This document shows positions 22,638 through 28,020 of a DNA stretch of 64,000 nt, in pieces. The notes under the pieces were generated by a model. That model did not search any database and was not told the DNA's origin. It saw only the letters and a program-made list of their open reading frames with translations. How positions within the stretch are numbered: position 1 is the stretch's first letter; each line of letters opens with the position of its first letter. Made by a program: the position numbers and the translations under genes. Source of the stretch: Escherichia phage EC1-UPM; sequence record NC_041906.1; one strand, 5' to 3'.

Positions 22638-25217
22638 ATGCGTTACATCACCTCTCAGGATACTGGTAAGTATCCTATTGCTATCCTCGGTCATCAAATC
22701 CGAAGGGAGGAGATGATTAAAACCTACCTGCTGCCTAATGACCTAAGCATGGAAGATTTCATCTTCATTGAGCTTCATTCTGCTCCAGGCAAGAAGAAGA
22801 CTCCTGCAAGGGAGATTAAGGAGTTTATTCAGCAGGAATTGCAACAGGTACTGGATGATGCAGAGACTCAGTACATCATTTGTACTGATTCTGATTACTT
22901 CAAAATACTGACTAAAGAAGCTAAAGCAGAGGCTAACCTCGGCTATGTTTGTGACTCAGTATGGGGTAAGCAGAAGGTTATCTATACACCTAGCTACAGG
23001 CAGGTCTTTTATGACCCTCCTGTAGTGAAAGCTAAGATTGCTCAGGGTATGGATGCATTACTTAACCACATTCGTGGGCAGTATGCTGAACCAGGTCATG
23101 GAATCATTGAGTTTGAAGCCTATCCGGATACTCCAGAGAAGATTAAAGCCTGGCTAGACCAGTTGCTTGAGATGGATAAGCCACTGGCTATAGACATCGA
23201 AGCATTCGGTTTAAAGCACTATAACGCCGGTATAGGAACAATTACGTTCTGTTGGAGTAAGACACAGGGCATAGCCTTTAATGTGGACTACGAGCCAATT
23301 CCAGGAGCTACTGAAGCACCATACGGGCGTATCAACAGAAATGATATTGTTCGTAATCTTCTACGTGAGTTCTTCATTAAGTACACCCAACGGCAGATGT
23401 ATCACAACATTAGCTATGACGTGTATGTGCTTATCTATCAGTTATTCATGGATAACCTGATTGATACAGAAGGCTTACTGCATGGCATGGAAATCATGCT
23501 ACGTAATTGGGATTGCACTAAGTTAATCACCTATCTGGCTACTAACAGTTGTGCTGGTAATCACCTTAGTCTGAAAGACCAGGCCCAGGAGTATGCCGGT
23601 AACTATGCTCAGGATGATATTAAAGACATTCGCCTTATTCCTAATGAGCAGCTGTTACGTTACAACCTCATTGACGGTTTGTGTACGTGGTACACCTACG
23701 AAAAGCACTGGGATACTCTCATTGCTGATGACCAGCTAGATGTTTACAACAGCATCTTTAAGCCAGCTTGTGAAGACATCATTCAGATGCAGTTAACAGG
23801 TATGCCCATGAATATGGATACCGTTAACCAAGTGGCTAAGGAGATGGAAACTGACAGGAACCTGGCTCTGAAAACTATTCGTGAGTCCAAGCTCATGAAG
23901 AACTTCACCCTGATGCTTCGTCAGGAATGGGTAGACGATAAGAATGCTAAGCTCAAGAAGAAACAAGTAACACTTGCTGACTGTGACATCGAGTTTAACC
24001 CTAACTCCGGTCCACAACTACAAAAACTGTTATTTGATTATATTGGCTTACCGGTTCTTGGTCTTACTAAGAGCAAGCAGCCTGCTACTGATGGTGACAC
24101 TATTAAAGCACTGCGTACTCATACGCAGAGCGAAGATGTTAAGGAACTGCTCAATGCACTTATCGATTATAAGCTTGTGGATAAGATTATCACTAGCTTC
24201 ATCCCGGCCTTTAGAAATGCCCAACCTGGGCCGGATGGATGGCACTACCTATTCGGCAACCTCAATCTGGGGGGAACGGTTTCTGGTAGATTATCTGCCT
24301 CTGAACCAAACCTGCAAACCATTCCGTCTGGTTCCAAATACGCCAAGAAGATTAAGAAATGCTTCGAAGCACCACCAGGTTGGGTCTTTTGTGGATTGGA
24401 CTTTGCAAGCCTTGAAGACCGTATCTCTGCATTAACTACTAAAGACCCTCAGAAGCTTAAGGTATATACCGATGGCTATGATGGGCATAGTCTCCGTGCA
24501 TATGCTTACTTTGGTGAGCAGATGCCAGACATAGAAGACACGGTAGAATCCATTAACTCCATTCAGCATAAGTACAAATCATTACGTAGTGACTCGAAGG
24601 CTCCAACCTTCCTGCTTACCTATGGTGGTACGTATATGGGCTTAATGAAAAACTGTGGCTTCTCTGAAGAGAAGGCTAAGACTACAGAGAAACGTTATCA
24701 CGATCTCTATGTAGTTAGTGACAGATGGGTTCAGGCTAAGCTAGACGAAGCTGCCAAAACTGGTTATGTTACTGCCGCATTCGGTTTGAGAGTGCGTACT
24801 CCTTTACTGGCTCAGGTTTTACGTGGGACATGTAAGACTCCGTATGAGGCAGAAGCAGAAGGCAGAACTGCTGGTAATGCTTTAGGGCAAAGCTGGTGTC
24901 TACTGAATAACCGTGCTGGTTCAGAATTTATGCGTAAAGTCAGAGCCAGTGAGTTCAGGTTAGATATACGTCCTAGTATTCATATTCATGATGCTCAGTA
25001 CTTCATGATTCGTGACAACATGGATACCTTGCAGTTCACAAACAAGCACTTGGTTGAAGCCGTTAACTGGCAAGACCATCCTGATATTGCTCATCCAGAA
25101 GTTGGTTTGGGTGGGGAACTATCCTTGTTCTACCCAACGTGGGCTAACGAGATTGAGATTCCAAATCACGCTACCCCAGAAGAAGTTCATCAAATAATTC
25201 AAAAGGCATTCGCATGA
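22638..25217 (+). CDS. family A DNA polymerase with 3'-5' exonuclease domain (N4 gp39-like)
   Basis: Exo motif LAIDIEAFG; pol motif A DFASLEDRI, motif B RSDSKAPTFLLTYGG, motif C HIHDAQ. Confidence 0.85.
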   Translation: MRYITSQDTGKYPIAILGHQIRREEMIKTYLLPNDLSMEDFIFIELHSAPGKKKTPAREIKEFIQQELQQVLDDAETQYIICTDSDYFKILTKEAKAEANLGYVCDSVWGKQKVIYTPSYRQVFYDPPVVKAKIAQGMDALLNHIRGQYAEPGHGIIEFEAYPDTPEKIKAWLDQLLEMDKPLAIDIEAFGLKHYNAGIGTITFCWSKTQGIAFNVDYEPIPGATEAPYGRINRNDIVRNLLREFFIKYTQRQMYHNISYDVYVLIYQLFMDNLIDTEGLLHGMEIMLRNWDCTKLITYLATNSCAGNHLSLKDQAQEYAGNYAQDDIKDIRLIPNEQLLRYNLIDGLCTWYTYEKHWDTLIADDQLDVYNSIFKPACEDIIQMQLTGMPMNMDTVNQVAKEMETDRNLALKTIRESKLMKNFTLMLRQEWVDDKNAKLKKKQVTLADCDIEFNPNSGPQLQKLLFDYIGLPVLGLTKSKQPATDGDTIKALRTHTQSEDVKELLNALIDYKLVDKIITSFIPAFRNAQPGPDGWHYLFGNLNLGGTVSGRLSASEPNLQTIPSGSKYAKKIKKCFEAPPGWVFCGLDFASLEDRISALTTKDPQKLKVYTDGYDGHSLRAYAYFGEQMPDIEDTVESINSIQHKYKSLRSDSKAPTFLLTYGGTYMGLMKNCGFSEEKAKTTEKRYHDLYVVSDRWVQAKLDEAAKTGYVTAAFGLRVRTPLLAQVLRGTCKTPYEAEAEGRTAGNALGQSWCLLNNRAGSEFMRKVRASEFRLDIRPSIHIHDAQYFMIRDNMDTLQFTNKHLVEAVNWQDHPDIAHPEVGLGGELSLFYPTWANEIEIPNHATPEEVHQIIQKAFA

Positions 25218-25519
25218 CCAAAAGTACTAAAGAAACTGTAGTCAGAAAATATCATTGGATGGTAGCAGCACAAGTAGTCTTCCAGCTTCCTAAAGTGGAT
25301 GATGGTTCCCTGCTTACCATGAACACAATGTTGCTCACCGATGAACCTTATGTGACCTATAAAGATTTGGCCCGTGCCAATCATTCCCTGAAGATTAGTC
25401 TGGACCAACGTTTCGACACTTCAGTTGACCTGAAAGACATTGTTTATCTGTCTCTTAGCAACCTGGGTCTGATGTCTGAACCAGAGTTCCAGGCAAACAT
25501 GATTCCTAAGGATAAATAA
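25214..25519 (+). CDS. hypothetical protein (101 aa)
   Basis: ORF, ATGA overlap with polymerase gene. Confidence 0.45.
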   Translation: MTKSTKETVVRKYHWMVAAQVVFQLPKVDDGSLLTMNTMLLTDEPYVTYKDLARANHSLKISLDQRFDTSVDLKDIVYLSLSNLGLMSEPEFQANMIPKDK

Positions 25520-25995
25520 TGGCTAAGCTCTCCGGTGGATTGAATAACTGGTATGTAGTGCCAGTTAAGCACCCTCAACGGAAAGAGCAAGAGCCATATC
25601 AAGCAGAGTGTGAGGATATTATCCAAGCACTGGGCATGACCTTCGATGAAGGTTGTGCCTTTAAAGCTCTGTGGCGAAATGCTGCTGCCCGTATGGGTAA
25701 TGGTAAACCTGGTAATACTGCTGCTTACGATGCAGAGAAGCTGGTTCATTATGCTAATCGTATTCTTGCTAAGGAGAAGTTAGCTAGTGAGTTATTTCCG
25801 GATCCTGCTACGAATGTAAATACCGTTGGTAGTTATTGGCACCATACACGCAATGGTAAACCTCACTTCACTAAAGAATTTTCATTCATTGAGATTGTTT
25901 ATAAAGATGAACGAGATGAAATTTACTCGTATAACTTCAATCAGCTAAGTGAAATTAAGTGGAACTGGGTTCACAGATACAGGATTACTTACTAA
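25519..25995 (+). CDS. hypothetical protein (158 aa)
   Basis: ORF with AGGA RBS. Confidence 0.45.
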   Translation: MAKLSGGLNNWYVVPVKHPQRKEQEPYQAECEDIIQALGMTFDEGCAFKALWRNAAARMGNGKPGNTAAYDAEKLVHYANRILAKEKLASELFPDPATNVNTVGSYWHHTRNGKPHFTKEFSFIEIVYKDERDEIYSYNFNQLSEIKWNWVHRYRITY

Positions 25996-26057
25996 TGAAG
26001 ATAACCAACAATCATGATGTCTCACTGGCTCTGGCTGTATGGCTATTGCATGGGTAA
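25995..26057 (+). pseudogene. 20-codon remnant duplicating the N-terminus of the nuclease gene at 26558
   Basis: Encodes MKITNNHDVSLALAVWLLHG*; 16/17 residues identical to start of ORF 26558 but 12/17 codons differ synonymously. Confidence 0.5.
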
Positions 26058-26063
26058 CTAGTT

Positions 26064-26561
26064 ATGAAACATAGAATTGCCCATGACAGGCTTTTACAGC
26101 TTGTATATTACGACCCTATTTCCGGGATTTTTACTCGTAGGAATACTGGAAAGGTATCCGGTTATCTAATGAAGAGTGGCTACATTCAACTCCGTGTGGA
26201 TAGCGTGTTGTACTATGGGCATATTCTTGCATGGTTCTATGTACATGGCGTATGGCCTACAGATAGGATTGACCATAAGGACAATATTCGCCATCACAAC
26301 TGGATAGATAACCTCAGAGAAGCAACCCACATGCAGAATAACCAGAGTGCTGTTCTATCTAAAGCGAACACATCTGGTTTCAAGGGAGTATCCTTTTCAA
26401 AGAAATTAGGTAAATACAGAGCAACTATTTGGGTTAATAGCAAACCGATCTCATTAGGTTTCACGGATAACCCAAGAGAAGCTGCTCTTCTTTATGATGA
26501 GGCTGCTGTAATTCATTATGGTGAATTTGCCAAAACCAATAAACAATTAGGTCTGCTATGA
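26064..26561 (+). mobile_element. HNH homing endonuclease with AP2-like DNA-binding domain (copy 1)
   Basis: IDHKDNIRHHNWIDNLREAT HNH motif; C-terminal GFKGVS...W AP2-like; inserted between gene-start remnant and intact nuclease gene. Confidence 0.7.
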
Positions 26562-27535
26562 AACTTACTAACAATCACGACGTTAGTCTCGCACTTGCCG
26601 TATGGCTTGTAACAGATGATTATGATTACGTAGACAATCCTAAGTATCTGTCTGTTACTACATTGCTTAAGCCCATTAAGCAAATCGTCATGAAGCATCG
26701 TGTAGACCTCAGTGACCAGTCTATTGATGTTATGGATTTCGTCTCTACATCAATGGGTACTGGCTTACATGATTCTATCGAGAAAGCCTGGAAGCTGGGG
26801 CATAAGACTGCATTGAAGAAGCTAGGATATCCTCAGCGTGTAATTGATGCAGTAGTCATTAACCCAACCAAAGCAGACTTTGATGCTAACCCTGACCTTA
26901 TCCCTATCTACATTGAGCAACGTGGAACCAGGGTGGTTAAGGGTTGGACTATCGGTGGTAAGTTCGACATCGTAACAGAAGGTCTGTTGCAGGACTTTAA
27001 GTCTACCTCAACCTATTCCTGGGTTGCTGGTTCCCGTGATGATGAACACAAGATGCAAGGTAGCTTGTATCGTTGGATTCACAACGACATCATTACTGAG
27101 GATGTAATTCGTATTAACTACATCTTCACTGACTTCATGAAACACATGGCTAATAGCAATCCGAACTATCCTGCTAATCGTATTATGCATAAGGATATTC
27201 CGTTGCTATCTGTCGAGAAGACTGAACGTTGGGTGGAAGAGAAGATTCACCTCATTGAGAAGTACTGGAATGCACCTGAAGAGGAAATTCCTGAATGTAC
27301 TGACGAGGAGTTGTGGCGAACAGAGCCACAGTTCAAATACTTCTCTGATGCTTCTAAGGTAGATGTACCTGGAGCCAGAAGTACCAAAAACTTTGACGAT
27401 ATGGCATCTGCCCGTATCTTCATGGCTGAAAAAGGTGGCAAGGGTGCTATCAAGGTCGTGGAGGGGCAGGTTAAGCGTTGTCTGTATTGCCCTGTCGCGT
27501 CCATTTGTGAACAGAGGAAACGATATTACCCATGA
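26558..27535 (+). CDS. PD-(D/E)XK-family nuclease with C-terminal Cys cluster (Cas4/RecB-like exonuclease)
   Basis: C-terminal CTDEE...C-x2-C-x5-C Fe-S-like cysteines; replication-module position. Confidence 0.5.
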   Translation: MKLTNNHDVSLALAVWLVTDDYDYVDNPKYLSVTTLLKPIKQIVMKHRVDLSDQSIDVMDFVSTSMGTGLHDSIEKAWKLGHKTALKKLGYPQRVIDAVVINPTKADFDANPDLIPIYIEQRGTRVVKGWTIGGKFDIVTEGLLQDFKSTSTYSWVAGSRDDEHKMQGSLYRWIHNDIITEDVIRINYIFTDFMKHMANSNPNYPANRIMHKDIPLLSVEKTERWVEEKIHLIEKYWNAPEEEIPECTDEELWRTEPQFKYFSDASKVDVPGARSTKNFDDMASARIFMAEKGGKGAIKVVEGQVKRCLYCPVASICEQRKRYYP

Positions 27536-28020
27536 AATTAATACCAATCGAGGTGTACCAACAAGCAGCTCTTGAGTTGTCTTACGACCCAGCCTCCCGT
27601 AGTTGTATACGGAAAAATGGTAAGGAAGTTGGAACCCTCGATGGTAGTGGTTACTGGTTAGTACGAGTAGGTAAGGGCAAAGGGACCTTACTAAAATGCC
27701 ACCGAGTAGTATGGTTCTTACATCATGGAACCATGCCACCCCTCATAGAACACAAAGACAGAAATCCGTCGAATAACCTTATTACTAATTTAAGGGAAGC
27801 GACTGAATCGCAGAACAGATGTAATACATCTAAGCATTGTGATAATACGTCTGGTGCTAAAGGTGTTTTCTGGTGCAAGTCCACCTCTAAGTGGATGGTT
27901 AAAGTCTGCGTTAACTATAAAACTTATTGGGGAGGCCGACACGCCGACCTGGAAACTGCAATCGCAGTAGCAACCGAATTACGAAATAAACTTCACGGAG
28001 AGTATGTAAACCATGATTGA
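27532..28020 (+). mobile_element. HNH homing endonuclease with AP2-like domain (copy 2, paralog of 26064)
   Basis: IEHKDRNPSNNLITNLREAT HNH motif; SGAKGVFW AP2-like; same architecture as copy 1. Confidence 0.7.

Follow-up and report, generated by a model that had tools for sequence, protein, structure and literature searches.

An HNH-AP2 endonuclease gene inside the 5′ coding region of gp42 in Escherichia phage EC1-UPM, accompanied by a diverged replacement for the gene start

Endonuclease genes in conserved coding sequence

Among described systems, the closest to the locus reported here are the mobile open reading frames (mORFs) of fungal mitochondria, in which an open reading frame (ORF) for a LAGLIDADG or GIY-YIG endonuclease brings with it a foreign C terminus of atp6, atp9, cox2 or nad3, and the native C terminus is left behind as a duplicate (PMC3630166). 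Examples are atp6, atp9, cox2 and nad3 of Glomus sp., atp9 of Rhizopus and cox2 of Mortierella, and the same paper cites atp6 of Allomyces macrogynus as a mORF case (PMC3630166). In these hybrids most differences between the copies are synonymous, the two copies of Glomus atp6 having 63.5% nucleotide but 91% amino acid identity, and the pattern was read as horizontal transfer (PMC3630166). In phages, the free-standing endonucleases encoded by the seg and mob genes of T4 have been described as intergenic (PMC2988022), and in intronless homing a flanking polymorphism protects the carrier while nearby markers are co-converted (PMC2988022; PMC10448857). Here we analyze the gene for a free-standing HNH-AP2 endonuclease in a 64,000-nucleotide stretch of Escherichia phage EC1-UPM (NC_041906.1; 'the window' refers throughout to this whole stretch), a G7C-like coliphage (Schitoviridae, Gamaleyavirus, N4-like). 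The gene is found within the 5′ part of the coding sequence of gp42, which encodes a PD-(D/E)XK-type exonuclease, and the inserted DNA (the cassette) also carries a replacement for gp42 codons 1–21, the resident version of which now forms a short remnant ORF upstream.

As in the mORFs, the endonuclease ORF of the window sits inside a conserved coding region near its terminus, the terminus that came with it keeps the reading frame of the gene and is unlike that of the resident lineage (at most 68% nucleotide identity to sampled natural starts), and the displaced native terminus lies adjacent and has stayed close to that of relatives without the element (94–97%). The two differ in enzyme class, host and the end of the gene that is affected: the mORFs are mitochondrial and alter 3′ ends, whereas the window has an HNH-AP2 enzyme, in a lytic phage, at a 5′ end that includes the start codon and its translational coupling. 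In its working the element thus resembles a mORF hybrid, but it belongs to none of those element families. With seg and mob of T4 it shares the lack of an intron or intein, a present/absent distribution among close relatives, and a place beside a conserved replication gene that is presumably cut tens of base pairs away; it departs from them in having been inserted inside coding sequence and in having left a 21-codon duplicate. The intergenic location by which the T4 genes have been described does not apply here, as the insert entered native gp42 65 nt into the gene, and the endonuclease gene looks intergenic after insertion only because the cassette carries a new gene start.

Temperate phages and integrative and conjugative elements insert in tRNA or protein genes and carry a replacement gene end in attP. 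There too the mobile DNA carries a copy of the displaced segment and the target gene stays functional, but those elements use site-specific recombinases and have near-identical cores, whereas for the window we propose double-strand-break repair, and its copies are ~30% diverged. Work by Friedrich and colleagues from 2007 reportedly found that insertion of mobE divides nrdA of Aeromonas phage Aeh1 in two ('genes in pieces') and that the two polypeptides reassemble. That case resembles ours in placing a free-standing HNH gene in a replication-related coding sequence of a phage with gene function retained, but it has no duplicated terminus, whereas gp42 of the window is whole by virtue of its replacement start. 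The endonuclease gene itself was already annotated in G7C, as gp41.1. We found no report of such a duplication in a phage in the literature, including the G7C-group preprint (bioRxiv 10.1101/542787), Barth et al. 2023 and the T4 review, a coverage that is incomplete and in which absence is no proof.

A single insert between codons 21 and 22 of gp42

All of the features at this locus lie on the + strand. The gp41 homologue (25519–25995; 158 amino acids; PHROG 9919; annotated as gp41 in G7C, St11Ph5 and PhAPEC7) ends in a TAA that shares its last base with the ATG of the remnant ORF (TAATG); this is the junction by which gp41 and gp42 are natively coupled. This 20-codon ORF (25995–26057) encodes MKITNNHDVSLALAVWLLHG and closes with a TAA created at the junction; alignment to genomes without the endonuclease gene identifies it as the displaced native 5′ end of gp42, comprising codons 1–19 and a damaged end. 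The 566-bp cassette (26057–26622) consists of a 7-nt linker (ACTAGTT), which is its sole non-coding part, the endonuclease gene (26064–26561; 165 amino acids) and 21 gp42 codons that are probably foreign. The TGA of the endonuclease gene overlaps the ATG of gp42 (ATGA), and the 21 codons carried by the cassette (26558–26620, encoding MKLTNNHDVSLALAVWLVTDD) now serve as the working start of gp42 (26558–27535; 325 amino acids), the protein of which begins MKLTNNHDVSLALAVWLVTDDYDY and matches PHROG 2139 ('exonuclease') with E=3e-151 and PDDEXK_1 weakly (E=0.0045). gp42 is chimeric, its codons 22–325 being resident and G7C-like. It remains intact because the cassette copy is in frame with codon 22 onward and has an ATG that overlaps the endonuclease stop, while the resident codons 1–21 have been displaced upstream as a dead-end ORF of 20 or 21 codons that has kept its coupling to the gp41 stop.

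The original prediction, made from the letters of the window alone, had read this arrangement as the footprint of a homing endonuclease that invaded the 5′ end of the gene and left a synonymously recoded duplicate of its first 17 codons. The two N termini indeed have 16 of 17 residues in common while 12 of the 17 codons differ (15 of 51 nt). Eleven of the codon changes are synonymous, among them TCA to AGT at Ser10, and the other is I3L, which gives a proportion of synonymous differences (pS) of 1.0 and a proportion of nonsynonymous differences (pN) of 0.08 between the remnant and the cassette copy over these codons (Nei-Gojobori). At ~30% divergence, the longest identical run between the copies is 8 nt. 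When the entire 64 kb was searched on both strands and in all frames, the two starts were the sole pair of peptide 14-mers within 1.5 kb of each other with at least 12 of 14 identities. The short ORF is neither of low complexity nor part of another gene, and it matches native gp42 starts, as the prediction required. An explanation by chance or low-complexity similarity, or by membership of the short ORF in an unrelated conserved gene, can be dismissed, given that no other such peptide repeat exists in the 64 kb and that the ORF corresponds base for base to the gp42 start of relatives lacking the HNH gene.

The alignment that had been proposed was run against G7C-like genomes without the HNH gene, comprising St11Ph5, PhAPEC7, AN24P2, PGN829.1, U1G, IME11, pSb-1 and others. 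In these genomes nothing separates gp41 from gp42, whose ATG overlaps the stop of gp41, and gp42 begins with ATGAAGATAACCAACAACCATGATGTCTCACTGGCCCTGGCTGTATGGCTATTACATGACGAGTATGATTAC, which is the sequence of the short ORF; the remnants are 94–97% identical in nucleotide sequence to these native starts. The short ORF is therefore the displaced native start of the gene.

We then aligned nine HNH-bearing genomes base by base (the window, 24-32N, PW8, ECBP1, Bp4, PD38, Uz-1, G7C and Mimir124). The HNH-bearing phages follow the native sequence up to CATGA(T/C)GAGTA and then switch to ACTAATT-ATG, where the endonuclease gene begins; 3′ of the endonuclease stop come 21 codons in the other coding version and then ordinary G7C-like gp42 from codon 22 (TATGATTAC). 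Genomes without the HNH gene are continuous across the insertion point (GAGTA/TGATTAC, with the slash at the point). In PW8 and G7C the functional start lies 566 bp from the remnant start, and these genomes thus differ from an HNH-less one only by a 566-bp insert at one point in gp42. In the window the offset is 563 bp because the remnant carries a 3-bp deletion. The insertion point falls between codons 21 and 22, with the junction ambiguous by a shared TA dinucleotide. The idea of an endonuclease invasion at the 5′ end of gp42 was thus borne out, in that the HNH gene and the diverged codons 1–21 form one insert, both ends of which lie at the same native point; the duplication held as well, with its unit lengthened from 17 codons to 21 codons plus 2 nt in most relatives.

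The endonuclease gene is polymorphic at this locus, being present in eight deposited phages and the window and absent from ~25 or more G7C-like phages. In nine of nine aligned genomes the endonuclease ORF is intact (165 amino acids) and the remnant has its ATG and an in-frame TAA. The layout recurs in a metagenomic locus (L222), and further members of the cluster lie on ~70-kb contigs. The remnants vary among the nine genomes at synonymous sites only. Their junction end is decaying, with the last residues before the stop reading LLHDE in most, LLHDG in L222, and LLHG in the window and phage 24-32N, which have a 3-bp in-frame deletion and a substitution at this end. Across 84 N4-like loci the association is complete: the duplicate occurs only together with the HNH gene, and every locus without that gene (~78) has one native-type start. 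The HNH-bearing loci in the sample all have a remnant and a cassette-type gp42 start, and the functional start reads LVTDD in all of them but Uz-1.

The assignment of the enzyme to the HNH class comes from matches of its 165-residue product to Pfam HNH_3 (E=1.1e-8; 35 bits, with a cut-off of 24.8) and to PHROG 99 ('HNH endonuclease'; E=5e-58). Its AP2 match (E=1e-4, 23 bits) is under the Pfam cut-off of 33.3, and many of its database relatives have a precomputed PF00847 match. A stop codon parts the gene from gp42, and there is no intron or intein context. In some records (PD38, L216; and the EC1-UPM cluster member P0242) the gene is annotated as encoding 130 amino acids from an internal start despite the intact 165-residue ORF, and the remnant ORF of 20 or 21 codons is unannotated in all records examined.

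Origin of the replacement start

Between the cassette copy and the native type, pS over codons 1–21 is about 0.84–1.0, compared with a pS of 0.21 and a pN of 0.004 over codons 22–325. This step from pS ~1 to 0.21 at codon 21/22 marks locally raised divergence or a recombination boundary at the flanks of the endonuclease gene, and identity returns sharply to ~95% from codon 22. The 63 nt of the cassette copy are at most 68% identical to any of ~80 natural gp42 5′ ends, which is the background level for this motif, so the copy is probably a foreign segment rather than one that diverged in place. The N-terminal motif (SL.LAVWLLHDEYDY) is nearly invariant among gp42 homologues, so very distant phages can encode nearly the same peptide with unrelated codons, and because native G7C-type and N4 starts are already saturated over the same 21 codons (pS 1.06, pN 0.02), a donor at least as distant as N4 suffices. 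Of the phrase 'synonymously recoded', then, the diverged copy stood, whereas 'recoded' is better read as a foreign allele, given the step in divergence at the insertion point.

An arrangement of the kind expected of a donor occurs on a 70.8-kb N4-like metagenomic contig (L219), in which an HNH gene 58% identical to that of the window occupies a true intergenic space between gp41 and gp42, after a short gp41 homologue. This contig has no remnant, its endonuclease stop overlaps the gp42 ATG as in the window (ATGA), and the start of its gp42 reads AVWLVDDSYDY. A high-GC contig without an endonuclease gene (L087) has a natural gp42 homologue with AVWLVTDDYDY.

A scan for peptides repeated on either side of the endonuclease gene, run on 39 loci that have related HNH-AP2 genes, yielded one further case, a mirror image of the locus. 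It lies on an unrelated 46.7-kb viral contig (IMGVR_UViG_3300042861_000953; L107 1900–2570, equal to L135 3346–3997), where a 641-amino-acid DNA polymerase ends in MCTPPDWCADLPLEVEASIMNRYGKG and is followed by a related HNH-AP2 gene and then by a short ORF encoding MMTTPPVWAEGLPLDVEASVMGRYGK. The last 26 codons of the polymerase (78 nt, similar in length to the 65 nt of the window) are duplicated downstream, the 3′-end geometry of the mORFs. Polymerase ends of HNH-less relatives have 77–90% nucleotide identity to the downstream remnant, as against 59–64% to the in-frame copy, and the pS between the two copies is 0.87; here it is the downstream copy that is of the native type. Locus L136 keeps only 17 nt of the polymerase remnant, and L137 and L140 have the HNH gene and the in-frame type of polymerase end with no remnant, which is the donor-type state seen directly.

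To account for these observations we propose that a free-standing HNH-AP2 homing endonuclease entered the 5′ coding region of gp42 together with replacement codons 1–21 through repair from a donor, a reading to which we assign a probability of about 0.8. A distant N4-like phage with the endonuclease gene between gp41 and gp42 would have been the donor, and its enzyme would cut HNH-less gp42 ~65 bp inside the gene, within the stretch that encodes the conserved motif AVWLLHDE/YDY (the slash marking the predicted cut). At the first entry to the G7C lineage, the right end of the break would have been repaired by homology to the donor gp42 in the conserved YDYV-coding stretch and the left end joined illegitimately, with TA microhomology, just upstream of the endonuclease ORF, so that repair copied the endonuclease gene and donor codons 1–21 and stranded the recipient's own codons. 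Because both flanks are now resident DNA, the structure could spread by ordinary homing, and each later homing event would turn the recipient's own gene start into a new remnant, which would explain why remnants resemble fresh native alleles with only synonymous variation. The divergence between the copies probably removes the enzyme's target from the carrier and suppresses the repeat recombination that would delete the endonuclease gene; the recoded copy is accordingly predicted to resist cleavage.

Two phages without the HNH gene have a patch of the cassette type in gp42. In NAN33P5 (L132 2002–2982) and Klebsiella phage vB_Kpl_K57alpha1.2 (L131), nt 1–11 of gp42 are of the native type, nt 12–63 are 100% identical to the G7C cassette copy, and the rest is 96–98% G7C-like; the recombination breakpoint in NAN33P5 is at nt 11/12. 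The 3′ half of gp41 in both is AN24P2-like (86%) and unlike that of G7C (47%). We considered whether these could be the ancestral 'empty' allele and rejected that identity, as the patch ends equally sharply at codon 21/22 and the locus is a recombinant of AN24P2-like gp41 and G7C-like gp42. They look instead like scar alleles, such as would be expected if a cut allele were repaired off the cassette copy without acquiring the endonuclease gene, or if the diverged repeats underwent exchange.

Several observations weigh against the proposed history or its details. No donor with a whole gp42 matching the 63 nt of the cassette was found in IMG/VR, INPHARED or a set of 5.8 billion proteins. A degenerate DNA pattern for AVWLVTDDYDY returned from IMG/VR only G7C, ECBP1 and one unrelated high-GC contig, and a protein search with the enzyme returned no relative with an identity between 58% and 90% outside G7C-like contigs, the nearest non-G7C relative being only 58% identical. 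The predicted cut position is read from where the duplication ends. The replacements L18V, H19T and E21D in the cassette copy fall in the near-invariant gp42 motif, so the full function of the chimeric gp42 is an assumption. Moreover, 76 further loci of the endonuclease family had no such flank repeat; with two independent events in ~115 loci, terminus replacement is therefore a rare outcome and not a routine of the family. The remaining point is Uz-1 (L217, OP312987.1, locus 902–970), an HNH-bearing phage in which the functional copy is of the cassette type to codon 16 and then native (CTATTACATGACGAG), including native codons 17–21 (LLHDE). If genuine, this allele means that codons 17–21 alone give no immunity. 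Compared with Bp4, Uz-1 has no difference at locus positions 115–951 and 35 differences after them, and it is divergent on both sides of the cassette. Its record has exactly the length and coordinates of that of Bp4, so a reference-guided assembly artefact is possible, and Uz-1 may be either that or a real recombinant.

A rival reading, which fits the failure to find a donor, has the cassette copy arise where it stands: the 65 nt at the start of gp42 would have been duplicated in tandem during insertion, and selection would then have recoded the functional copy at synonymous sites, letting it escape self-cleavage and stopping repeat-mediated deletion of the endonuclease gene. In keeping with such an origin, the cassette-copy protein is closest to the G7C type itself (A12, NNHD) and not to N4 or other lineages, and 12 of the 15 degenerate codons among the first 17 have changed, which is at or beyond saturation. 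Yet for ~20 of 63 nt to change, with the TCA-to-AGT serine switch among them, while the adjacent 900 nt differ by 5%, almost every silent site would have to have been under positive selection. The diverged copy in the polymerase case, moreover, is a natural allele of remnant-less HNH-bearing lineages (L137 and L140), and L219 has the donor-type layout in an intergenic position; we consider recoding in place unlikely. Far less probable is removal of the insert from the RNA, by self-splicing as an intron or in some other way, with the remnant as exon 1 spliced to codon 22. Joining the remnant to codon 22 onward would give a perfect native gp42, and G7C-like phages have endonuclease-containing insertions in the polymerase gene that have been discussed as introns (PhAPEC7 annotation; bioRxiv 10.1101/542787). 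Judging from sequence, we rejected splicing on the grounds that Rfam returned no match at E≤1 over 25400–28200, for group I and group II introns alike, and that the insert has only 7 non-coding nt and 63 coding nt beyond the endonuclease ORF, which leaves no space for a ribozyme core. The cassette copy also still has its ATG, with an AGG upstream, and its protein sequence is conserved, features that would serve no purpose in a spliced-out segment, and the scar alleles without the HNH gene start gp42 from the cassette copy alone.

A different proposal, compatible with entry by donor repair, concerns the present role of the remnant, which could be a translated leader that passes ribosomes from gp41 to the endonuclease gene by termination and reinitiation and so gives low, coupled expression. 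The remnant ATG overlapping the gp41 stop and the in-frame TAA 6 nt before the endonuclease ATG are kept in the nine genomes and in L222, and the 3-bp deletion in the window and 24-32N keeps the frame. A strong Shine-Dalgarno sequence is lacking for the endonuclease gene here, while the relative that is intergenic in L219 is placed after a hairpin and has GGAG. Nor does the cassette have a promoter of its own: scans for sigma-70 promoters and for terminators found no such signal on its + strand, although such scans say little about N4-like middle genes, which are transcribed by phage RNA polymerase. Conservation of the remnant would be explained equally well if each homing event re-creates it from a functional recipient allele, and the sample of closely related genomes is small, so that we regard a leader function as possible but improbable. 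The chain of stop/start overlaps (gp41 to remnant, then 6 nt, then endonuclease to gp42 to second endonuclease) hints at coupled translation, which is speculation.

Only tentatively do we extend these results to a general claim, that phage endonucleases can enter essential, conserved coding DNA without an intron or intein by replacing a terminus with a diverged one, that the stranded start can act as a leader, and that the divergence is maintained against self-cleavage and repeat loss. If true, 'terminus replacement' would be a third route into coding DNA beside introns and inteins, and one common to phages and mitochondria. The locus itself shows how a selfish gene can enter the coding region of a replication gene while keeping that gene working and, under the proposed history, how one-sided illegitimate repair can bring a homing endonuclease from one phage into a very divergent one. 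It extends the pattern known from fungal mitochondria to phages and to the 5′ ends of genes. The locus is of value chiefly because it is a clear natural example and gives access to the target of the enzyme: it maps the predicted cut site of an HNH-AP2 enzyme to the AVWLLHDE/YDY-coding stretch of the N4-family exonuclease gene and offers natural substrates in the form of native alleles, cassette junctions, scar alleles without the HNH gene and the Uz-1 hybrid. For annotation, the 20- or 21-codon ORF is a recurrent feature that records omit, and the first 63 nt of chimeric gp42 would mislead phylogenies.

The second endonuclease gene and neighbouring genes

A second HNH-AP2 endonuclease gene (27532–28020, + strand), in an intergenic position between gp42 and gp43, provided an internal contrast. 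It is a paralogue, 42% identical to the first, and occurs without the first in PGN829.1 (where it is unannotated) and U1G; it is absent from PW8 and G7C. When we checked it for a similar footprint, no duplicated fragment was found. Compared with genomes that lack it, its flanks (window 27500–28120) are unusually divergent only over ~30 nt at the end of gp42 and ~100 nt at the beginning of gp43, with mostly silent changes, which is the ordinary footprint of intergenic homing. This second gene behaves exactly like the free-standing elements of T4.

The gp43 primase gene follows at 28013–30163. On the other side of the locus, gp40 lies at 25214–25519 and the DNA polymerase gene at 22638–25217. 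The latter encodes 859 amino acids and is uninterrupted in the window; in PhAPEC7 the polymerase gene is annotated as a join across an intron with another HNH endonuclease. gp41 is a mosaic, its N-terminal ~88 residues being conserved across G7C-like phages and several PHROGs and its C-terminal half existing in at least three unrelated versions (in the window and homologues at L002, L003, L132, L133 and L219). In L219 the C-terminal half is missing and a terminator-like hairpin stands in its place. In the record of K57alpha1.2 (L131, OY979416.1 63064–67187), 'portal protein', 'spanin', 'endolysin' and 'holin' pseudogene features are placed on the opposite strand over the DNA polymerase–gp40–gp41–gp42 region, and the feature table appears to be out of register with the sequence.

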